Below, in pieces: positions 2,722 through 32,000 of a DNA stretch of 32,000 nt. Under the pieces are notes generated by a model. That model did not search any database. It was not told the origin of the DNA and saw only the letters and a list, made by a program, of their open reading frames with translations. Both the position numbers and the translations under genes were made by a program. Numbering within the stretch: the stretch's first letter is position 1; each line of letters opens with the position of its first letter. This DNA is from Deltaproteobacteria bacterium (GTDB lineage Bacteria; Desulfobacterota; Dissulfuribacteria; Dissulfuribacterales; QOAL01), in assembly GCA_026985565.1 (NCBI GenBank), contig JALSQG010000095.1, forward strand, positions 6,634 through 38,633. Reading direction: 5' to 3'.

Positions 2722-3489
2722 ATGATCCCTATCACCCTTGAATTTGAAACCACAGTAATTACCAAAGAAGGCTCAGAGCCAAAACAGGAAACTGTTGCCA
2801 TTGAAACACCCTTTAGGGTCGCCCTTAATGATAAACCAATTGGTACGTCCATGGTGCTGCCAAAAGGGCTTGAGGAGTTTGGTGTGGGTTTTTTGTTTGG
2901 CCAAGGCTACATAGAAGAGCCAGGCCAGGTCAAAGAGGTTTACGTATGTCCTGAAGGAAGGATAAGCGTCTATGCTGATGTTGAAGACGTTCAGCCCAAA
3001 GAGGTTATCATCACATCTGGTTGCGGCGGAACAGGCAGGATATCCAAGAAGATGCTTGAAGGTGCCTTTGGCCCCCTTTCCGAGTGTACTATCTCCATGG
3101 AGGAAATAGGGCAATTCGTGCTTAAGGTGCTTCATCTGTCAGACCTGGGACTGAAGACCCATTGCATACACGGATGCGGCTTTTGGGCCAAAGGGCAACT
3201 GGTTGCATTCTACGAAGACGTTGGCCGGCATAATGCAGTGGACAAGATCATCGGGGCCATTCTTCTTGGCAAGATACCGTCAAAGGGGGCCATATATACC
3301 ACAGGAAGGCTTACATCAGACATGGTGCTAAAATGCGCAAGGATAGGTATCCCCATTGTAATGTCACGAACGGCCCCCTCCTCCCTGGGCCTTGCAATAG
3401 CAAGACGGGCAGGAGTTACCCTTGCTGCCTATGTACGTCCCCACCGTATAAACTGTTTCCATGCACCACAAAGAATAATTCAAAAATGA
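2722..3489 (+). CDS. fdhD: Formate dehydrogenase accessory sulfurtransferase FdhD
   Basis: Motifs: ETPFRVALND, GFLFGQGYI, SGCGGTG, EDVGRHNAVDKIIG, SRTAPSSLGLAIARRAGVTLAAYVR. This is the classic FdhD/NarQ pattern. Confidence 0.9.
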   Translation: MIPITLEFETTVITKEGSEPKQETVAIETPFRVALNDKPIGTSMVLPKGLEEFGVGFLFGQGYIEEPGQVKEVYVCPEGRISVYADVEDVQPKEVIITSGCGGTGRISKKMLEGAFGPLSECTISMEEIGQFVLKVLHLSDLGLKTHCIHGCGFWAKGQLVAFYEDVGRHNAVDKIIGAILLGKIPSKGAIYTTGRLTSDMVLKCARIGIPIVMSRTAPSSLGLAIARRAGVTLAAYVRPHRINCFHAPQRIIQK

Positions 3490-3599: not shown

Positions 3600-4568
3600 A
3601 TGTCAAATGAAGTGCAGGAACTTGTAAAAAGACTCAGGCCAAACCTATCAATAGGGCAATATGGCCGCATATACAGGGATACCACTGAATTTATGAAGAT
3701 ATCCTATGGAGATGTCATTGCCCTTGAGGACCAGCACTATCTGGTACTGCGGGATGAAGCCGAAAGGAGCTTTGGCATAGAAGATCCCAAGTATTGGGTA
3801 AAAAGATGCATCCATCTGGAAAGTGGTGAAAGAAAGATATTAAAGCTTGTCTTTTATGAAAAATTTACCCTTAAACTCGGAGACCTGGATATCCCCTGCT
3901 ACAGAAGCCCTCGAAAGGAGGGCAGGATCCTGGATTTGGTGAGAGGTGACAGTCGTTTTATGCAGGGTGTATCAAAAAAGGATGAAAAGGGCAATCTGGT
4001 TCGAATAATCGATGTAGTAAGTGGAAAGAGGCTTGATCACCATGTCTTTGAAATGGAAATGCCCCACAGGGAATATTTTTTTAAGGAATTTCCAGGCATC
4101 CTTGAAAAGTTCATAGATTCCTGTCGGGCCATTGAATTCTTGCATGAAAACAGGGAGATTCATGGAGACATAAGAAGAGATCATCTGTGGCGCGAGTACA
4201 AAAGCGGTAACTATGTGTGGATAGACTTTGATTATGCGTATGAATTTGAGGAAAATCCCTTTGGACTCGATATCTTTGGACTTGGAAGCCTTCTTATCTA
4301 CCTTGCAGGCAAACAGATCTACACCATGGCCAACCTGTCGCAAATCCTTGGAGACAAAGACCTTGAGTTTGAGAAACAGGATTTTTCACTTCTTTATAAG
4401 AATCGTATTGTCAATCTAAGGAAGCTGTTCCCATACATCCCGGAACAGATGAACGTCATCTTTATGCATTTTTCCCAGGGAGCAGAGGTCTTTTACGAAA
4501 CGGTTTCAGAATTTTTGGCTGACCTGGAACCTTGTCTTGAAATTATAAAAAATAAGGAGGCGTCATGA
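3600..4568 (+). CDS. Atypical protein-kinase-like fold protein (uncharacterised)
   Basis: Catalytic-loop-like IHGDIRRDHL, with His where kinases normally carry the metal-binding Asn. DFG-like WIDFDYA. Subdomain-IX-like GLDIFGLGSLLIYLAG. A candidate beta3 Lys sits in RKILKLVF. There is no clear Gly-rich loop. The stop overlaps the next start (ATGA). Confidence 0.7.
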   Translation: MSNEVQELVKRLRPNLSIGQYGRIYRDTTEFMKISYGDVIALEDQHYLVLRDEAERSFGIEDPKYWVKRCIHLESGERKILKLVFYEKFTLKLGDLDIPCYRSPRKEGRILDLVRGDSRFMQGVSKKDEKGNLVRIIDVVSGKRLDHHVFEMEMPHREYFFKEFPGILEKFIDSCRAIEFLHENREIHGDIRRDHLWREYKSGNYVWIDFDYAYEFEENPFGLDIFGLGSLLIYLAGKQIYTMANLSQILGDKDLEFEKQDFSLLYKNRIVNLRKLFPYIPEQMNVIFMHFSQGAEVFYETVSEFLADLEPCLEIIKNKEAS

Positions 4569-15866: not shown

Positions 15867-17135
15867 CTATTTGAAATTGTTTGGACCCCAGAAAGGAAAA
15901 TAGTCCCTTTTGCCATATCTTAATAGCAATCGCTGATTCTGACCATTGGCCTGCATTACAAACAGATGTTTGTTGCCGTCAAGCCTGTTTGAACTAAAAA
16001 GTATGAGCCTTCCATCAGGAGACCACGTAGGATTTTCGTTGTTACCCTCAAAGGTCAATTGAACAGGATCACCACCGTCTGGAGATATGGTGAATATCTC
16101 AAACCTGCCACCAACCCTGCTAACATATACTATCCTATTGCCCTCAGGCGACCATTGTGGATCAGTGTTGTAACTTCCACTGTAGGTCAGACGTCTGACC
16201 CTTCCAGAAGACACATCAAGGATATATAACTGAGGCCCTCCTGCCCTATCTGATACAAAAACGATCTTGCTACCATCTGGGGAAAAAGAGGGGGAAACAT
16301 TTATCCCAGGCCCTCTCGTAAGCCTTCTAAGGACCCTTCCGTTTAGATCCAACATATAAATATCCGGGTTTCCAGACTTGCTCAGGGTGACAGCAAGACG
16401 CCTGCCAGACGGATGCCAAGACGGAGACATATTCACACCCTGAAAGCAGGCTATTTTCCTTATCCTGCCAGATGAACGATCTTTCAAATAAAGACAGGGC
16501 CTTCCTGTCTTGAATGCAGTAAAGGCTATGTATCTGCCGTCAGGGGAAAACCTTGGCGACATGACTATGGTATGAAGCCTTGTTTCTTGCCTGATGGAAC
16601 CACCATCAAAATCTGCCGAATATATTTCCTTACCAGAAGCACCATCTGAAACAAAAACGATACGTGAAAGCATTACACCCGGACTGCCAGTTATGGCCAG
16701 CACGATCTCGTTTGCAAACCTGTGAGCCACCTTAGAAAGTGCAGAAGAAGTCGCTATATATCTTCTGCCAACCATCATGGACCTACTGGAGAGGTCATAA
16801 AGTTTCATAACCACAGTTATGTCCGGACCTTTTCGTGCAAACGACGTGGTAACCTTGTAGTCAACCTTTTCGCCATGACCCAGGCTGGCAGACTCAAATA
16901 CAGAAAAGAAGCCTTGAAAAAGAAGATCTTTTGTAAGGGTTTTCACAACTCTTTGTGCCTCATGTCTATTTTCATAGGTCATGACTGACACAGTGGGATT
17001 TTCGATCAATATAGGAATCTTCTGAAAATAGGGCGAATTGATATCTATGAAGATTTTTGCACTAAGAGTGTTAGGACTTATGCACCACAAAAGAAAAAAA
17101 AGGGCCAATATTCTAAAACCACTCGTCTTGTTCAC
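15867..17135 (-). CDS. tolB: Tol-Pal system beta-propeller protein TolB
   Basis: Signal peptide and repeated PxWSPDG-type blades: PRFSPDGRYIAF, PSWHPSGRRLA, PSFSPDGSKIVF, PQWSPEGNRIVY, PTWSPDGRLILF. GTG start. Confidence 0.92.
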   Translation of the reverse strand: MNKTSGFRILALFFLLWCISPNTLSAKIFIDINSPYFQKIPILIENPTVSVMTYENRHEAQRVVKTLTKDLLFQGFFSVFESASLGHGEKVDYKVTTSFARKGPDITVVMKLYDLSSRSMMVGRRYIATSSALSKVAHRFANEIVLAITGSPGVMLSRIVFVSDGASGKEIYSADFDGGSIRQETRLHTIVMSPRFSPDGRYIAFTAFKTGRPCLYLKDRSSGRIRKIACFQGVNMSPSWHPSGRRLAVTLSKSGNPDIYMLDLNGRVLRRLTRGPGINVSPSFSPDGSKIVFVSDRAGGPQLYILDVSSGRVRRLTYSGSYNTDPQWSPEGNRIVYVSRVGGRFEIFTISPDGGDPVQLTFEGNNENPTWSPDGRLILFSSNRLDGNKHLFVMQANGQNQRLLLRYGKRDYFPFWGPNNFK

Positions 17136-17173
17136 TTCGGATTACCTTCTTGCTCAACTTGATTGCTCGCCAA

Positions 17174-17212
17174 TATAAAAGGCCCCAGCCAATTTGCAAA
17201 TCGACTGGGGCC
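17174..17212 (-). terminator. Intrinsic terminator closing the YedE-TusA-DsrE operon
   Basis: GGCCCCAG (17181-17188) pairs with CTGGGGCC (17205-17212), with an inner ATT/AAT extension. On the minus strand the hairpin is followed by TTTTAT. It lies 33 nt after the last ORF stop. Confidence 0.55.
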
Positions 17213-17244
17213 AATATAAGCAATTTTTTAGATCTTGTGCCCTT

Positions 17245-17436
17245 CTACCACCAACTGACTGTCTGATCCGCCTCAAAAATCATCTGCACAAGCACATCGT
17301 AATTGGGATCTCCAACATAGAGTTTAAATTCCATTGCATCACGATCACGACTTAATATCTCAACGAGCTTTTTGGTGTCATCGTTGGGTTCAGACCTGTA
17401 AACGTGTAATATCTTCATCTTTTTTTCGTCGCTCAT
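17245..17436 (-). CDS. Small conserved hypothetical protein (fifth gene of the YedE-TusA-DsrE cluster)
   Basis: 63 aa with no Cys, ending in WW. It starts 16 nt after the upstream stop, with GGGGGAGGGA upstream of the ATG. Confidence 0.6.
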   Translation of the reverse strand: MSDEKKMKILHVYRSEPNDDTKKLVEILSRDRDAMEFKLYVGDPNYDVLVQMIFEADQTVSWW

Positions 17437-17452
17437 CTTTTCCCTCCCCCTT

Positions 17453-17794
17453 TTAATCTTCTGAACATGCTGGTGGCGGTGTCTTGCTCTGTTTAGGGAG
17501 ACCGTAGGGTATGATCAGGTCTGCCTCTCTCAGCCTTTCGCCAAGCTCTTCTAAGCTGATCTTGGTAAGCTCCACCCCTTCGACGTCCTCACCATCCATT
17601 GTGAAGACATCACCCTCCATGTCTCTGATCCAGTCGATATTCTCTTTGACGTAATCAGAAAAACGGGGATACTCACTATACATAAAAACAGGATAGGCAT
17701 AATGGTTTTCCACTGCCAAGCCGAGGGCAGAACGCACGGCATCGCCCGAATACATCCTGTTTTGCATCAAGAAATAACATTTTTTTGATTCCAT
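17453..17794 (-). CDS. Conserved hypothetical protein, possibly a DsrE/F/H-like fold, with a Pro-rich C-terminal Cys tail
   Basis: 113 aa. It starts 18 nt after the DsrE-like stop. The C-terminus is ...PKQSKTPPPACSED. GGAGGAGG lies upstream of the ATG. Confidence 0.65.
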   Translation of the reverse strand: MESKKCYFLMQNRMYSGDAVRSALGLAVENHYAYPVFMYSEYPRFSDYVKENIDWIRDMEGDVFTMDGEDVEGVELTKISLEELGERLREADLIIPYGLPKQSKTPPPACSED

Positions 17795-17812
17795 GATATT
17801 ATGCCTCCTCCA

Positions 17813-18145
17813 TTAAAGAACCAGATATTTTCCGCACTCGTCAATAATTGCACCATGATAGGCCTGGGTCCTCATCTGACGAGGAGTCAACCCCTTTGGC
17901 ACATCCTTTTCCACATCATATCCTTCACATGTGTAGCTATCTGCACATATGGCCAAATCTTCCACTTCACACATATTGGCCAGCTTTACAAAATCAGGAT
18001 GCTTTGTCAGATGCACCGACTTAAAGGTGAAAAATACCATCACCTTCTTGCCGGCACGTGTTGCAGCAGCTGCCACACCTATCACATGTCTCATGTGCTG
18101 GGGAGACGTCACAAATATTCCAAGTTTGTTAGGATCGGTTGCCAT
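17813..18145 (-). CDS. DsrE/DsrF-like sulfur relay family protein
   Basis: 110 aa. LGIFVTSPQH...AAAATRAGKKVMVFF is Rossmann-like. The Cys-containing segment LAICADSYTCEGY resembles the DsrE active-site region. Confidence 0.75.
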   Translation of the reverse strand: MATDPNKLGIFVTSPQHMRHVIGVAAAATRAGKKVMVFFTFKSVHLTKHPDFVKLANMCEVEDLAICADSYTCEGYDVEKDVPKGLTPRQMRTQAYHGAIIDECGKYLVL

Positions 18146-18188
18146 CGGTATAAAACCTCCCTTTCTTCAGATTGGAAGAAACTTTTTG

Positions 18189-18446
18189 TTACTTTTTCTT
18201 AACGTAAAAACGAATGAATCCGTCGTCCTCTCTCTCGCCAAGGTACTCATGGCCAGCCCTTGCACACCAGCCTGGGATGTCATTTCTGGAGCCGGGATCG
18301 GTACCAAGAACCTCGAGGATCTCGCCAGAATTGATCTTCTCTATTTCCTTCTTTGTCCTAAGAAGTGGCATTGGACAACTGAGTCCCTTTGCATCCAGTG
18401 TACGTGCTACCTCTAAGCCTTCTGGGGCAATTTTGATGTCGCTCAT
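18189..18446 (-). CDS. tusA: TusA-like sulfurtransferase
   Basis: 85 aa. LDAKGLSCPMPLLRTKKEI carries the CPxP active-site motif, followed by ILEVLGTDPGSRNDIP. Confidence 0.9.
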   Translation of the reverse strand: MSDIKIAPEGLEVARTLDAKGLSCPMPLLRTKKEIEKINSGEILEVLGTDPGSRNDIPGWCARAGHEYLGEREDDGFIRFYVKKK

Positions 18447-18500
18447 GTTTCCTCCTTTTGCTATTTGTATGATTTTTTTATTTCAGTAGTTTTACATAAA

Positions 18501-19850
18501 CTACATTTCTACTATCAGCTTGTTGGAATCTTCATTCCAATCAACGATTATGTACCAAAGGGCCATGGCAATGGCCACCACGGCTAATGTACCGCCGTAT
18601 CCCAAGGCATCTGGAAGGTAAAGGTGCATCCCAAGCTTGCTTCCCTCATGTGTTGGCCCTACACCTTCCATATGTATTGCCCTAAACCATTTGGTCATTA
18701 TGGCATTTGAGATGCCAAAGAATGGAACCACCAGCCAAAGCTTCATCTGGCCTTCACCAACTCGCCAAAGGGTACCGGAGCCACATCCTCCTGCAAACAT
18801 GGCCCCAAGACCAAAAAGGAATCCACCCAAGATGGAACCCCATCCGAAGGTACCACGTACATAATTGACAGGATCAAGGGTGCGCCTTGCAGCTATGACC
18901 GCCTGGTCTGCAGCGTCCACCACGTCCTCAAGGGTGTCAGCCAGCTCTTCATCCTTTACTTCATCTGGATCTATCTCATCCACCACCTCGCTAAGTGTGG
19001 ACTGAACTGCCACTGCAGAACCCCTTTGAGGAACAGCATACTTTAAAACTGCAGCACCAATGGCAACAACCAGTATGCTAAGGGCAACAGATTTTGCAAG
19101 GGTACAGTCCCCAGTCATGTGGGGTTCCCTGAATGCTTGAACCATGCACCAGCGACCCCTTTGCATGGTATAGCCAAGCCCAGCCGAAATGAGGAGGATG
19201 CCACTTAAAGATGAGACATACTCGTCACTTTGGCCAGAGTAATGACAGGCGCCCCAAATGACTGCCGCCAGGGCTCCCAATCCAATCAGGATCTTGAGCC
19301 CATAGGGGAAATCAAAATTTTTACCGCCAGAAGTTCCCCATGTGATGTGCTCCATTTCCCAGTAAATATATTTGAGGCCAAGGACCACACCTATGACAAG
19401 CCCAAGCCACATGGTAAAACCGTTTGCAGCAAGATTACCAATGGCGTTGTACATGCCGCCAACATTACAACCTCCGGCAAAGGCAGAGCCTACTCCCATG
19501 AGGATGCCTGCGATAATCGCCTTTATAAACTCCCAAGGAGGAGGAAACTTGAATGAAAAATCGTTGCCGAGACATGCAGATATAAATGCCCCTGCCAAAA
19601 AACCTATTCCAATAACAGAACCGGAACTGATTACGACACTTGTGGGTTTGGCATCAAAGATTCCAACACCATAAAGAATCCACTCACCCCAGTTCCTGAT
19701 GGCACCAACAGCTCCCCACGGCCTCCACCAAGCCATTATTAGGATACTCAAAAGGGCCACTATCAAGCCAGCTGCAGTGGCGTTCCACTCGGTCTGGCAC
19801 AGAATCTTGAAAAAATTCTTCACCTTTTCCTTAAACAAACCATCGCTCAT
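18501..19850 (-). CDS. YeeE/YedE family sulfur-compound transporter-like membrane protein
   Basis: 449 aa polytopic protein with two half-domains, each carrying a GGC motif (AFAGGCNVGG; MFAGGCGSGTLWR), plus RWCMVQAF. A hydrophilic acidic insert of about 60 aa sits in the second half. Confidence 0.9.
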   Translation of the reverse strand: MSDGLFKEKVKNFFKILCQTEWNATAAGLIVALLSILIMAWWRPWGAVGAIRNWGEWILYGVGIFDAKPTSVVISSGSVIGIGFLAGAFISACLGNDFSFKFPPPWEFIKAIIAGILMGVGSAFAGGCNVGGMYNAIGNLAANGFTMWLGLVIGVVLGLKYIYWEMEHITWGTSGGKNFDFPYGLKILIGLGALAAVIWGACHYSGQSDEYVSSLSGILLISAGLGYTMQRGRWCMVQAFREPHMTGDCTLAKSVALSILVVAIGAAVLKYAVPQRGSAVAVQSTLSEVVDEIDPDEVKDEELADTLEDVVDAADQAVIAARRTLDPVNYVRGTFGWGSILGGFLFGLGAMFAGGCGSGTLWRVGEGQMKLWLVVPFFGISNAIMTKWFRAIHMEGVGPTHEGSKLGMHLYLPDALGYGGTLAVVAIAMALWYIIVDWNEDSNKLIVEM

Positions 19851-19926
19851 AAGGCGCTCCCCTCCTCAAAAAGATGATTAGTGCTAGCACGGGCTATCAG
19901 GATAAGCATTGCATGAAGAGAATATT

Positions 19927-19944
19927 AAAGTTATTAATAACTTT
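19927..19944. promoter_or_regulatory. Perfect 18-bp palindrome in the divergent yedE / M16 peptidase intergenic region (candidate operator)
   Basis: AAAGTTATTAATAACTTT is its own reverse complement. It lies 77 nt upstream of the yedE-like ATG and 149 nt upstream of the peptidase ATG. Confidence 0.35.
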
Positions 19945-20092
19945 CCAAATTGAATTGGTGTGTACCAAAATTCACGCACTGTGTCAAGAATTAGTTGAAT
20001 GGCCATTCAGTGACTGGTTCCCTGACATTCAACGTCAAAATTACTTTTACAAACAACTCAAAGGAACCTTGCTGCCAAATAGGAGCAGAATC

Positions 20093-22750
20093 ATGAACAG
20101 ATTTTTTTTCTTCATAACCATACTCACCTTATTTTCCATTTTTAATTATTCCCTTTCCTTTGGCGCCACCACATCCCGTATGACAGGGCTTTTCAAAAAG
20201 ATCTTGCCAAACGGACTCACTGCCGTAGTCAAGGAAAGCCACAGGGCACCTGTGGTGGCAGTCCAAATTTGGGTTAAAGCAGGCAGTGCATACGAAACGG
20301 ACAAACAGGCAGGGATTACCCATCTTATCGAACACATGATCTTCAAGGGCACGGAAAAACGAGGCCCAGGCGAGCTTGCAGCCATAATAGAGTCCCTTGG
20401 TGGCACCATAAACGCCTATACCTCTTACGACTATACGGTTTATCACTGTGTTGTTCCAAGTTCCCATCTTTCAACCGCCCTTGACGTCTTGGAAGATGCG
20501 GTCTTTCACTCCAAATTCGATCCAGACGAGTTGGAACGTGAGAAAAAGGTCGTCCTCGAAGAGATGAAGATGCGCATGGACAATCCCCATACCAGAATGT
20601 TCGAAAACCTAATGAGGATCTCATACAAGGTTTATCCATATAGACGCCCAATCATAGGCTTTGAAGAGACAGTAAGATCCTTTACGAGACAAGATATACT
20701 ATCCTACATGGCTGAGCATTACAGGCCATGCAACATGACAGTCATCGTTACAGGTGATGTGGATGGGGAGCAGGCCCTATCCCAGATTGAGCATTTTTTT
20801 GGAAAGGAACAAGAGCGCCCATGCAAAGAGGCTGCCTTCCCTAAAGAGCCAACTCAACAAGGCCCCAGAATCATAGAGACGTCCATGGACTGCAATGAGG
20901 GCTATCTTGCCATTTCATTTTCAGGGCTTCCAAGTTTTACAGGCAAGGATACGCCGGCCCTTGACCTTCTTTCAAGCCTTCTTGCAGATGGTGAAAGCTC
21001 CATTTTGGTTTCCAAACTCAAAAATCGGCTTCAGATTGTCCACTCCATACAGGCCTCTGCCTTTACCCCAAAAGGGCCTGGACTTTTTGAGATCACAGCA
21101 GATATTGATCCACAAAATCTGGAAAGGGTACTTCTAAATGTGCTCAAGGAGATCTCAAGGCTGAAAGAGCAGGAGGTTTCTCCAAAGGACCTTAAAAAGG
21201 CCAAGACTCAGATCGTCACAGACTTTTTGTACAGTCAGGAAACCATGGAGGGAGAGGCAAGAAAACTTGGCGTATTCCAGACCCTGGCAGGGGATGCATC
21301 CAAGGAAATTGAATACATTGAAAGTGTTAAGGCTGTTACTGCCAAAGACATAATGGATGTTGCAAAGAAGTATCTTGACCCCCAAAGAATCAATGTATCC
21401 TTGGTATCTCCAGAGTCGGCTTCTGTATCCTTTGATGACAAGGCCCTTGCTAAGGTTATAAAACAGGCCTCCAATCCGGAGCTGGAAGAGGCCTCTGGTG
21501 CCACAATGATAATAGGAAAAGGGAAAGTAAAGAGATTTACCGTGGGAAATGATGTGACTCTTTTATGTCTTGAGGCACACGATCTTCCGACAGTGGGCAT
21601 CCGCATAGTGTTGCCAGGGGGTTTGAGATATGAAAACCAATCCACCAACGGCATATTCAACCTGCTTGCACAGGCATGGACAAAAGGCACAACCCTTCAC
21701 AACTCGAAGACACTGTCAGAGCTGATAGACTCCATGGGAGCTGATATCCACGGTTTTTCAGGACAAAACTCCTTTGGTTTAAAGGCACGATTTACGAGTG
21801 ATACTTTTAGAAGAGGGCTCGGACTGCTTGCGGAAATCCTGCTTTCTCCCTCTTTCCCAGAAGATGAAATAGAAAAATTAAAACCCCAGATCCTTGCCTC
21901 CATCAGGCAACAAGACGATTATATGCCTTCGGTTGCCGTTCGGGAGTTCAAAAAGCTCCTTTTCTCTCCACATCCATACTCCATGAATATGCTTGGCACT
22001 CCAGAAAATGTCATGAGATTTTCAAGGGATGATATTCTAAATGCTTACCATAACTTTGTTGTGCCAGACAGGGCAATAATTGCTGTGGTGGGAGACTTTG
22101 ACGCTGATCAATTGAAACAGGAGTTGACTGATCTGTTAAAAGATTGGCAGAATCAGGCAGAAGGCTTTTTGCCAACCCCTCCTTCACCTGCCCCCTTAAA
22201 CAGCCCCAAAGTAGTCAATATACACAGAGACAAGCAACAAGAACACATTGTTCTTGGTTTCATGGGAACATCCATCTCTGACCAAGACAGATATCCCTTA
22301 GAGGTGTTGAATGCCATTCTTGCTGGTCAAGGTGGCAGGCTCTTTAAGGAGCTTAGAGATAAGGAATCTCTTGCATACTCCGTAACCTCCTTTCTGAACT
22401 TTGGAGTTGATTGTGGCTTTGTAGCAGCATACATAGCCTGCTCTCCTGAGAAAAAGAAAAAGGCCCAAAAGGGACTTTGGCGCGAGCTCTACAAGATCCA
22501 AGAAGAACCTCCCGAGGTGACTGAGGTTCAAAGGGCCATAAACTGGCTTCTTGGAAGATATCAGATTTCACTTCAAACGCCTGGCGCCAAGGCCATGGAT
22601 ATGGCAATAAACGAGCTTCTCGGCCTTGGTTATGATTTCTCTAACAGATACCCTGCCCTGCTTAGGCAGGTTACCCCTCAACAAGTAATGGATGTTGCCA
22701 AGAAATACCTTGGCTCCCAGGCCTATGTACTTGTGAGCGTTGGACCATAA
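20093..22750 (+). CDS. M16 (pitrilysin/insulinase) family zinc peptidase, tandem two-unit form
   Basis: HxxEH zinc motif in GITHLIEHMIFKGT. The second half is M16-like but lacks HxxEH. Signal peptide MNRFFFFITILTLFSIF. I prefer the ATG at 20093 (AGGAG 7 nt upstream) over the track start at 19874. Confidence 0.9.
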   Translation: MNRFFFFITILTLFSIFNYSLSFGATTSRMTGLFKKILPNGLTAVVKESHRAPVVAVQIWVKAGSAYETDKQAGITHLIEHMIFKGTEKRGPGELAAIIESLGGTINAYTSYDYTVYHCVVPSSHLSTALDVLEDAVFHSKFDPDELEREKKVVLEEMKMRMDNPHTRMFENLMRISYKVYPYRRPIIGFEETVRSFTRQDILSYMAEHYRPCNMTVIVTGDVDGEQALSQIEHFFGKEQERPCKEAAFPKEPTQQGPRIIETSMDCNEGYLAISFSGLPSFTGKDTPALDLLSSLLADGESSILVSKLKNRLQIVHSIQASAFTPKGPGLFEITADIDPQNLERVLLNVLKEISRLKEQEVSPKDLKKAKTQIVTDFLYSQETMEGEARKLGVFQTLAGDASKEIEYIESVKAVTAKDIMDVAKKYLDPQRINVSLVSPESASVSFDDKALAKVIKQASNPELEEASGATMIIGKGKVKRFTVGNDVTLLCLEAHDLPTVGIRIVLPGGLRYENQSTNGIFNLLAQAWTKGTTLHNSKTLSELIDSMGADIHGFSGQNSFGLKARFTSDTFRRGLGLLAEILLSPSFPEDEIEKLKPQILASIRQQDDYMPSVAVREFKKLLFSPHPYSMNMLGTPENVMRFSRDDILNAYHNFVVPDRAIIAVVGDFDADQLKQELTDLLKDWQNQAEGFLPTPPSPAPLNSPKVVNIHRDKQQEHIVLGFMGTSISDQDRYPLEVLNAILAGQGGRLFKELRDKESLAYSVTSFLNFGVDCGFVAAYIACSPEKKKKAQKGLWRELYKIQEEPPEVTEVQRAINWLLGRYQISLQTPGAKAMDMAINELLGLGYDFSNRYPALLRQVTPQQVMDVAKKYLGSQAYVLVSVGP

Positions 22751-30607: not shown

Positions 30608-32000
30608 TTATTCGCCGTTAGTAGATGCGCCTTTTGGTTCTTCTGTATTTGAGATTAATACAAGTTGCCTAAGAAGAAGATTTGGATCGCTATAGGTATA
30701 AGGTATTTGGAGAACGAGTTTCCTTAATCTTTCGTAACGTTTGGTATCAAGTATGAAAAATAAAACGGGCGTTTTTTTATGGATTGCAATAACTGCCTTA
30801 TCAAGGTCGACCCTTTGAATCTTGCGACCAAGGTAAAATGTGCACTCTTCGTCCCAAAACCCTGCATAATAAAGATCCCTCTTTCCAACTACATTCCTGA
30901 CATATTTGCAAAAAGGCCGGACATCTTTCCCCTTATAGATGGCAGGTCCAATCTGCGTACCAAACAAAAGGGTCACCAATCCGGTTAAAATCAGAAACGG
31001 AAACAGGCAGAAGGTAATCTCACGCTGTTTTCTTGTTTTCATAAGAAAATGGATACAAAAAAGACTTGAGATCAAAAGGACGAAAAAGGTCAAAAGATTT
31101 TCTTTCAATAAGAAAATCACGAAGATAGCAAGCTTTTCCCCTCCAAGTAAAATAGACAAATAGTGTGAGATGGCAAAGGTCCTGCCTGCATGAAGCATAG
31201 GCGTAAAAAGGCAGACGGTAATGCCTGAAAGAAAGGCTACCCCTGTCAAAAAATAAGTGATTATGGACAAAATGGTGTCACCTTTTTTTGTCCTTAGAAC
31301 ATAGACTGCGCAAAGATATGCCGCTGCAGGATAAAGAGGCAGTATGTAGTCGCTTCTCTTAGATGTAGCCAGGGTGAAAAAGACAAACACAAAGACAAAA
31401 TAGACAAAAAACAATCGTTCAGTAGCGCTCCTTTTTGCCCATGTCCTTAGTGTTGAAAAAAGGGCAAAGGGCGTTATTAGTGACCATGGAAAAAAACCTG
31501 TAAGAAAATAAACGAAGTATCTGGACAAAGGCGAGTGGTTAAACTCCTTGAAACCCCCTCCTGGAAAGAGGCTTGTAAACCTTGACAGGTTCTCTTCAAG
31601 GATGAATCGGTGGAAGAAGCGAAAGTCCGTCTTAATGGTTGCATAAATAAACCAGGGGAGACAAAAAATTAAAAAAATCAAAAAAATGGGAGATAAAAAA
31701 AGCTTCCTTAAAAGAAAAGGTTTTTTCTCTAATAAAAGAAATAGGGAGACTGGTACAAAAACCAAGATAGCGCCAACCGGCCCCTTAACCATCACAGCCA
31801 TTGCTGCAAAGAAAAAAAAGGCTGAAATCTCTCGGCCTTTGAAATAGGTATCGGGTGACTGCTCCCTGCCACAAAATCTCCATGCCTTGATGAAGAAAAA
31901 GATGCTTGTAAAACAAAGGAGGGAGAAAAAAAGGTCCATCCTTGCGATCTGACTCATCCAAATGATTTTCGGACAGGAAAGAAAGATTGTGGTAAGGAGG
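30608..32000 (-). CDS. Glycosyltransferase family 39 (ArnT/PMT-like) membrane protein, 5' end beyond the right edge
   Basis: Polytopic, Phe/Leu-rich protein. AMAVMVKGPVGAILVF resembles the ArnT-family KGP loop. The frame stays open from 31957 to the window edge (…LLTTIFLSCPKIIW-MSQIA…), so the true start is probably outside the window. Confidence 0.75.
   Translation of the reverse strand, partial: LLTTIFLSCPKIIWMSQIARMDLFFSLLCFTSIFFFIKAWRFCGREQSPDTYFKGREISAFFFFAAMAVMVKGPVGAILVFVPVSLFLLLEKKPFLLRKLFLSPIFLIFLIFCLPWFIYATIKTDFRFFHRFILEENLSRFTSLFPGGGFKEFNHSPLSRYFVYFLTGFFPWSLITPFALFSTLRTWAKRSATERLFFVYFVFVFVFFTLATSKRSDYILPLYPAAAYLCAVYVLRTKKGDTILSIITYFLTGVAFLSGITVCLFTPMLHAGRTFAISHYLSILLGGEKLAIFVIFLLKENLLTFFVLLISSLFCIHFLMKTRKQREITFCLFPFLILTGLVTLLFGTQIGPAIYKGKDVRPFCKYVRNVVGKRDLYYAGFWDEECTFYLGRKIQRVDLDKAVIAIHKKTPVLFFILDTKRYERLRKLVLQIPYTYSDPNLLLRQLVLISNTEEPKGASTNGE

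Follow-up and report, generated by a model that had tools for sequence, protein, structure and literature searches.

The YTD gene cluster of an uncultured Desulfobacterota bacterium as a probable YedE-TusA-DsrEFH type II sulfur relay

We analyzed a 32-kb stretch of DNA from an uncultured Desulfobacterota bacterium (contig JALSQG010000095.1, positions 6,634 to 38,633; hereafter the window). Five minus-strand genes at 17245-19850 of the window encode a YedE-type membrane protein, a TusA sulfur carrier, a DsrE-like protein and two small proteins, which an earlier reading of the sequence (hereafter the original prediction) had left as conserved hypothetical proteins, CHP1 and CHP2. Judged by its sequence, this is the YTD cluster (a yedE-related gene, tusA, a dsrE-like gene plus two small conserved genes, in that order), as had been proposed, and the last three proteins are orthologs of the characterized DsrEFH type II complex. 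This orthology is based on 60-75% identity to the cable-bacterial orthologs, on the conservation of Cys67 and on the same gene order. The system is already known, and the function of the cluster, described as unresolved in the original prediction, has been explained by work published in 2026 (PMC13293266). Taken as a whole, the operon very probably works as a YedE-TusA-DsrEFH type II sulfur relay.

Organization of the operon and reality of the genes

The operon is composed of yedE (18501..19850, 449 amino acids (aa)), which encodes a Sulf_transp membrane protein and presumed sulfur importer, tusA (18189..18446, 85 aa), dsrE type II (17813..18145, 110 aa), dsrF type II (the former CHP1, 17453..17794, 113 aa) and dsrH type II (the former CHP2, 17245..17436, 63 aa). 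All five genes lie on the minus strand, with intergenic gaps of 54, 43, 18 and 16 nucleotides (nt) in the coordinates of the open reading frames (ORFs), and each begins with an ATG preceded by a GGAGG-type Shine-Dalgarno sequence 5-10 nt upstream. The positions, common orientation and gaps given in the original prediction match the ORF list exactly, and all of its motifs were found: two GGC motifs in YedE (AGGCNVG and AGGCGSG), GLSCPMPLL in TusA and ICADSYTCEG in the DsrE-like protein. The two small ORFs, for which no motif had been recognized, gave zero Pfam or NCBIfam matches.

The same five products were called by independent gene callers on four public contigs with an identical CHP1. In addition, homologs of CHP1 made up 420 protein clusters, with 388 species-representative genomes containing a relative, and CHP2 had homologs in 143 clusters with a single-sequence search and in 1438 at E ≤ 1 with a profile search, among which only the close relatives are listed. 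Because of these many homologs and the matching gene calls, we regard CHP1 and CHP2 as genuine genes and not chance ORFs. A scan of the window against Rfam found no RNA family.

Correspondence with DsrEFH type II

Plum-Jensen et al. (ISME J 2026; PMC13293266), who set out from hypothetical proteins of cable bacteria that are conserved and highly expressed, reported that AlphaFold models of the three genes following tusA resemble DsrE, DsrF and DsrH of Allochromatium vinosum (2HY5), and that the recombinant DsrE, DsrF and DsrH of Electronema aureum co-purify in a 1:1:1 ratio. Persulfidated TusA loads one sulfur on DsrE in a Cys67-dependent manner, the transfer being abolished by C67S, and the complex passes sulfur to DsrC in vitro in one direction only (PMC13293266). 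The same study explicitly named the YTD dsrE-like gene together with both CHPs dsrEFH type II, and a proteomics paper on Dissulfuribacter thermophilus has adopted this naming (PMC13490349). These data bring support to the persulfide relay through TusA and DsrE that had been proposed in general terms for the window. They also supersede two statements of the original prediction, since the CHPs, said to have no demonstrated role, are the DsrF and DsrH subunits of a 1:1:1 complex and the acceptor, said to be unknown, can be DsrC in vitro (PMC13293266). Co-transcription, which had been raised as a test, was observed in E. aureum, where tusA-dsrEFH forms a single transcript (PMC13293266). The cluster is also not equally common in organisms lacking dissimilatory sulfur metabolism: dsrEFH type II was found in 985 genomes, 73.9% of which have reductive dsrAB (PMC13293266).

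When compared with the orthologs of Ca. Electronema and Ca. Electrothrix, the window proteins were 67-71% identical for DsrE, 61-66% for DsrF and 60-75% for DsrH. DsrF matched the Electronema halotolerans protein with 62% identity over 99% of its length (143 bits) and Dissulfurirhabdus thermomarina G3N55_00725 with 75% identity (189 bits), and DsrH was 79% identical to the D. thermomarina protein (108 bits). Both species are listed carriers of the system, E. halotolerans as one of seven cable-bacterial genomes and D. thermomarina under the label "YeeE-TusA-DsrEFH type II" (PMC13293266). The window shares with the published system the same five genes, the tusA-dsrE-dsrF-dsrH order, Cys67 within ICADSY, the PPPAC arm of DsrF and similar subunit sizes (DsrE 110 aa, DsrF 113 vs 115 aa, DsrH about 57-63 aa). 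By contrast, yedE in the window lies 54 nt upstream of tusA and points the same way, but it is divergent in Desulfobulbaceae, including cable bacteria. The window further differs by a 42-aa acidic loop in YedE, by a Ser replacing Cys at position 61 of DsrH and by its uncultured Desulfobacterota host.

No significant sequence relationship was observed between the window subunits and type I DsrEFH (A. vinosum 2HY5) or E. coli TusBCD, in agreement with the published statement that sequence methods fail to link type II to type I (PMC13293266). The window DsrE, DsrF and DsrH are shorter (110, 113 and 63 aa) than TusD, TusC and TusB (128, 119 and 95 aa). Cys20 of type I DsrH is essential in vivo (PMC3397948), whereas the window DsrH is cysteine-free, and type II travels with reductive dsrAB, not with oxidative dsrAB (PMC13293266). 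When the type II DsrE, DsrF and DsrH profiles were aligned by hhalign with E. coli TusD, TusC and TusB, or with one another, the probabilities did not exceed 4%; one local match, between the CHP1 C-terminus LEELGERLREADLIIPY and the TusC C-terminus (P 0.03), was suggestive. Gathering-score matches to the type I/TusBCD families PF02635 and PF04077 were not obtained, as the DsrE-like protein and the CHP1 family stayed below threshold and CHP2 had no match. An exhaustive CHP1 profile search toward type I gave 75 clusters at E ≤ 0.001, and only 4 of the 41 aligned full-length members of the CHP1 family touched PF02635 weakly (best E 0.041).

TusA and the active-site cysteines of DsrE

The profile scans proposed in the original prediction gave clear matches of YedE to PF04143 (E 1.1e-39) and of TusA to PF01206 (E 1.1e-26, 92.9 bits for a gathering cut-off of 28.6), whereas the DsrE-like protein reached only a sub-threshold match to PF13686 (E 0.071). 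TusA aligned with 1DCJ and 3LVJ, structures of E. coli TusA (E 3e-12), with the CPxP cysteine matched, which places the active-site cysteine at Cys24, in CPMP; its NCBIfam score was under the TusA equivalog cut-off (61.5 vs 78). Among the 80 loci from other species genomes that were compared with the window, TusA was 70-100% identical in 78, the two remaining contigs stopping short of the gene.

The weak Pfam signal of DsrE recurred in the family, PF13686 being touched by 18 of 29 DsrE type II members and PF02635 by 7 of 29, always below threshold. A DsrE type II profile searched against Protein Data Bank (PDB) sequences gave chance hits only. Cys67, which experiments have verified as the residue of E. 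aureum DsrE type II that binds sulfur (PMC13293266), was invariant, together with Cys73 and Cys104, in all 61 sequences of the clade that comprises the window and the cable bacteria, Cys67 and Cys73 being arranged with a C-x5-C spacing. In a sister clade whose DsrF lacks the C-terminal arm described below, Cys67 is kept, a Lys stands in place of Cys73, and Cys104 is either shifted or missing. The two additional DsrE cysteines therefore co-vary with the DsrF arm.

DsrF and its C-terminal arm

The AlphaFold2 model of DsrF (pLDDT, predicted local distance difference test, 87.8) exhibited an alternating beta/alpha fold with a disordered C-terminal tail. Ranked by template modeling (TM) score, the top Foldseek matches were the DsrE-family structures 3PNX (TMq 0.64) and 2QS7 (0.54), with no match at E ≤ 1e-3, and the CHP1 profile searched against PDB sequences gave chance hits only.

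The tail, of low pLDDT in the model, corresponds to residues 98-113 (window 17456-17503) and, in the clade shared by the window and the cable bacteria, follows the pattern Y-G-L-P-K-Q-x3-P-P-P-A-C-[SA]-[ED]. It resembles the C-terminus of DsrC/TusE, A-G-L-P-K-P-[TV]-[GK]-C-[VI]. In spite of turnover among synonymous codons, Cys110 of this arm was invariant in 66 of 66 sequences; it was encoded by TGT in 40 and TGC in 25, and all four proline codons were in use. In the sister clade, DsrF ends at ...MRSDKS without the arm and the gene order is unchanged; no DsrC-like gene adjoined the clusters with armless DsrF at the sister-clade loci examined. According to PMC13293266, an exposed DsrF cysteine is loaded non-specifically, and a Cys67-independent transfer of sulfur to DsrC was seen in vitro. 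Because of the conserved arm, the cysteine-free DsrH and this Cys67-independent transfer, the arm could be a second, specific persulfide relay site, a built-in swinging arm similar to that of DsrC. We consider this doubtful, a lead and not a result. If true, such a site would explain the Cys67-independent transfer to DsrC and would make up for the DsrH cysteine on which type I depends.

As another role for the four clade-specific cysteines, we considered that they could be ligands of a metal cluster. This candidate was rejected, as the recombinant cable-bacterial complex was analyzed by mass spectrometry and no cofactor was reported (PMC13293266).

The four sister-clade loci (L089-L092) have in both lineages examined a hybrid response-regulator/histidine-kinase gene beside the divergent yedE. 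Two of them, L091 and L092, also have MobB and a MobA-like gene about 1.4 kb downstream.

DsrH

The AlphaFold2 model of DsrH (pLDDT 84.4) showed a beta-alpha-beta-alpha-beta fold, and the protein carries an invariant C-terminal WW and no cysteine. At position 61, 64 relatives have Ser (36), Cys (27) or Thr (1), the window protein having Ser.

YedE resembles the YeeE thiosulfate transporter in its cysteines and differs in the order of its halves

The motifs AGGCNVG and AGGCGSG of YedE contain Cys128 and Cys356. Together with Cys235, these residues align with C293 (Cys128), C22 (Cys235) and C91 (Cys356) of Spirochaeta thermophila YeeE (StYeeE, 6LEO), three cysteines that are essential in YeeE (PMC7449682), and they were invariant in all 72 cluster-linked homologs. 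YedE is therefore related to the YeeE/TsuA-YeeD/TsuB systems (S. thermophila 6LEO and 8J4C; E. coli) by the Sulf_transp fold family, by these three aligned cysteines and by the adjacent TusA-family partner. It differs from them in two respects. On the one hand, E. coli YedE aligns with it collinearly (E 1.3e-19), but relative to YeeE/TsuA its two halves are exchanged, residues 215-400 matching TsuA 6-134 and residues 16-164 matching TsuA 192-334. The swap also appeared against StYeeE 6LEO and in the coordinates of the Pfam and NCBIfam matches, and E. coli YedE shows it relative to TsuA. On the other hand, its scores were well under the NCBIfam equivalog cut-offs for the TsuA models, with 91 vs 400 and 72 vs 645 bits; the TsuB/YeeD (18.8 vs 147.5), YedE/FdhT (74.6 vs 350) and YedF (41 vs 79) models also scored below cut-off. 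In addition, thiosulfate was no sulfur donor for the cable-bacterial partner proteins of the relay (PMC13293266). The substrate of YedE is presumed to be a reduced or sulfane sulfur species.

The half-size proteins PmpB and PmpA match the N- and C-halves of YeeE, respectively (PMC11582611). A fusion in the order PmpA-PmpB in one case and PmpB-PmpA in the other would explain the swap between YedE and YeeE.

The window YedE also carries a strongly acidic loop insertion of 42 aa (SEVVDEIDPDEVKDEELADTLEDVVDAADQ...) at about residues 281-322 (window 18885-19010). This insertion was restricted to the clade of the window (L002-L019 and L028), the other cluster-linked YedE proteins having a loop of 16 or 24 residues. 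In the literature searched, we found no description of the YedE/YeeE half swap, and no discussion of the DsrC-like DsrF arm, the extra DsrE cysteines or the clade-specific acidic YedE loop.

Synteny and constraint

The order and orientation of tusA, the dsrE-like gene, CHP1 and CHP2 were kept wherever the contig reaches in all 80 loci, so that the conserved linkage of the two small ORFs, proposed in the original prediction as a test, held throughout. The syntenic loci include Ca. Electronema, Ca. Electrothrix, Desulfogranum japonicum, Desulfobulbus elongatus, D. alkaliphilus and Thermosulfurimonas dismutans, and close protein homologs were also present in Desulfolithobacter dissulfuricans and Dissulfurirhabdus thermomarina. 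The position of yedE was more variable: in the window's clade and several further clades it lies upstream in the same direction, and in Desulfobulbaceae it is divergent.

In the nearest metagenome-assembled genomes (L002-L009), compared with the window over 15867-22750, the five cluster proteins were mostly 91-99% identical to those of the window (lowest 87%), compared to 63-76% for the flanking TolB and M16 proteins. The cluster being far more conserved than its flanks, it is therefore probably under unusually strong constraint; this difference points to very strong purifying selection or to a recent exchange of the cluster.

Among distant relatives, we observed apparent natural fusions of DsrF with DsrH (P0289, 174 aa) and of DsrE with DsrF (P0303, 191 aa), as well as a compressed DsrE/DsrF/DsrH chimera (P0320, 156 aa), each being a single metagenomic ORF that could result from a frameshift or an assembly artefact. 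The DsrE-DsrF and DsrF-DsrH fusions bring indirect support to a DsrE-DsrF-DsrH complex.

Proposed relay and rival explanations

In the relay that we propose, YedE would carry reduced or sulfane sulfur (polysulfide or persulfide being the most likely form) over the cytoplasmic membrane, its three cysteines lining the pore, and Cys24 of TusA would take the sulfur as a persulfide. TusA would then transfer the sulfur to Cys67 of DsrE within a 1:1:1 DsrE-DsrF-DsrH complex, a step observed in vitro for the E. aureum orthologs and extended to the window from the 60-75% identity and the conserved cysteine. From DsrEFH type II, the sulfur would pass one way to DsrC, as it does in vitro for the orthologs, the window itself being without dsrC. 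According to a published hypothesis, the DsrC-bound sulfur would finally enter DsrMK and DsrAB-AprAB-Sat running oxidatively, in sulfur oxidation or in the oxidative branch of disproportionation. With this operon, the uncultured Desulfobacterota host would be placed among the roughly 20% of reductive-DsrAB organisms that are hypothesised to run the Dsr pathway oxidatively, with a bearing on the interpretation of sulfate-reducer marker genes from sediments and hydrothermal systems.

Several points weigh against this proposal. The 32-kb window is without dsrC, dsrAB, apr, sat and qmo, so that the acceptor and the pathway are presumed for the window's genome, and the oxidative operation of reductive DsrAB is a hypothesis in every organism (PMC13293266). 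YedE is of the YedE type and not collinear with the thiosulfate transporter TsuA, and its substrate is a presumed one. Finally, in Dissulfuribacter thermophilus under thiosulfate disproportionation, TusA was up but YedE was down (PMC13490349), and the transporter and the relay therefore need not act as one unit.

The original YTD proposal, also followed by the original prediction, regards the cluster as dedicated machinery and marker for inorganic sulfur disproportionation. Disproportionators are indeed present among the carriers of homologs (Dissulfurirhabdus thermomarina, with a CHP1 identity of 75%, Desulfolithobacter dissulfuricans and Thermosulfurimonas dismutans), and during thiosulfate disproportionation YTD proteins were more abundant in D. 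dissulfuricans and TusA was up 1.9 log2-fold in Dissulfuribacter thermophilus (PMC13490349). This link is now disputed: just 25 of 63 cultured disproportionators have dsrEFH type II, 35 of the 46 carriers in culture reduce sulfate or sulfite, 21 of these 35 are not reported to disproportionate, the presence of the genes is uncorrelated with the sulfur species disproportionated, and sulfide-oxidizing cable bacteria carry and express the cluster (PMC13293266). A dedicated role in disproportionation thus appears rather unlikely. An uptake and decomposition of thiosulfate for sulfur assimilation, as with E. coli TsuA/TsuB (YeeE/YeeD), in which the three small proteins would be accessory carriers, could account for the Sulf_transp domain, for the presence of all three YeeE-essential cysteines (PMC7449682) and for a TusA-family gene adjoining yedE as TsuB lies beside TsuA. 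The reversed halves of YedE and the TsuA and TsuB/YeeD scores far under their cut-offs are difficult to reconcile with it. Moreover, no persulfidation of the cable-bacterial TusA, DsrEFH type II or DsrC by thiosulfate was seen, and the cluster co-occurs with dissimilatory dsr genes (PMC13293266). These results weaken the thiosulfate import that had been offered as an option for the window, where YedE is no TsuA equivalog, and make this explanation very improbable.

We also considered that the cluster could be a TusBCD-like relay serving the sulfuration of cofactors or of tRNA (2-thiouridine), or else a selenium system of the YedE/YedF kind. The passage of sulfur from TusA to a three-subunit complex is reminiscent of TusA-TusBCD-TusE, E. 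coli YedE and the YedE/FdhT model are both collinear with the window YedE, and MobB and the sulfurtransferase FdhD are encoded 14-17 kb away in the window. However, no tusE, mnmA or selD is adjacent to the cluster, and the YedE/FdhT and YedF scores given above are far under the curated cut-offs. The distribution of the cluster tracks dsrAB-carrying sulfur metabolisers, and DsrC, not TusE, took the sulfur in vitro (PMC13293266). We regard this explanation as having hardly any likelihood, and the YedE-TusA-DsrEFH type II relay remains the reading that we favor.

Operon ends and neighboring genes

The operon is closed by an intrinsic terminator on the minus strand (17172..17212), with a 14-bp stem containing 8 G-C pairs, closed by a loop of 4 nt and followed by the tail TTTTATATTG. 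The hairpin extends from 17212 to 17181, where the original prediction had placed it, and is followed by the T-tail; the folding energy of the 61 nt around it is -29.8 kcal/mol. Terminator-like sites were no more numerous in the region than in shuffled sequences (3 found vs 3.2 expected). Across 63 related loci, the best 45-nt window 3' of the last gene had a mean of -23.1 kcal/mol, and in the cases listed the downstream sequence was mostly a G+C hairpin followed by a T-run. Equivalent hairpins being present in related loci with stem sequences that differ between lineages, the terminator is therefore conserved in position and not in sequence.

At the other end, yedE and the M16 gene diverge from an intergenic region (19851..20092) that is the presumed promoter region of the operon. 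It contains a TTGACA-17 nt-TACACA element and the yedE Shine-Dalgarno sequence GAGGAGG; a promoter scan flagged nothing in this region. The M16 gene (19874 (or 20093)-22750, plus strand) encodes a large two-unit zinc peptidase, 885 aa in most gene calls. Its start was called 243 nt from yedE, with the 885-aa product, in three of four public contigs, and 24 nt away, with a product of 958 aa, in the fourth. A divergent upstream M16 peptidase gene was present in about half of the 80 loci, all of them with yedE co-directional with tusA. This linkage persists down to 45% identity, Thermosulfurimonas dismutans included, and may reflect a functional link or inherited synteny.

Elsewhere in the window, MobB is encoded at 1958-2641 and FdhD at 2722-3489. 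Two ORFs, of 449 aa (30608-31957, minus strand) and 322 aa (3600-4568, plus strand), are without any Pfam match, and a multihaem c-type cytochrome of 333 aa with paired CXXCH motifs is encoded on the minus strand at 567-1568.

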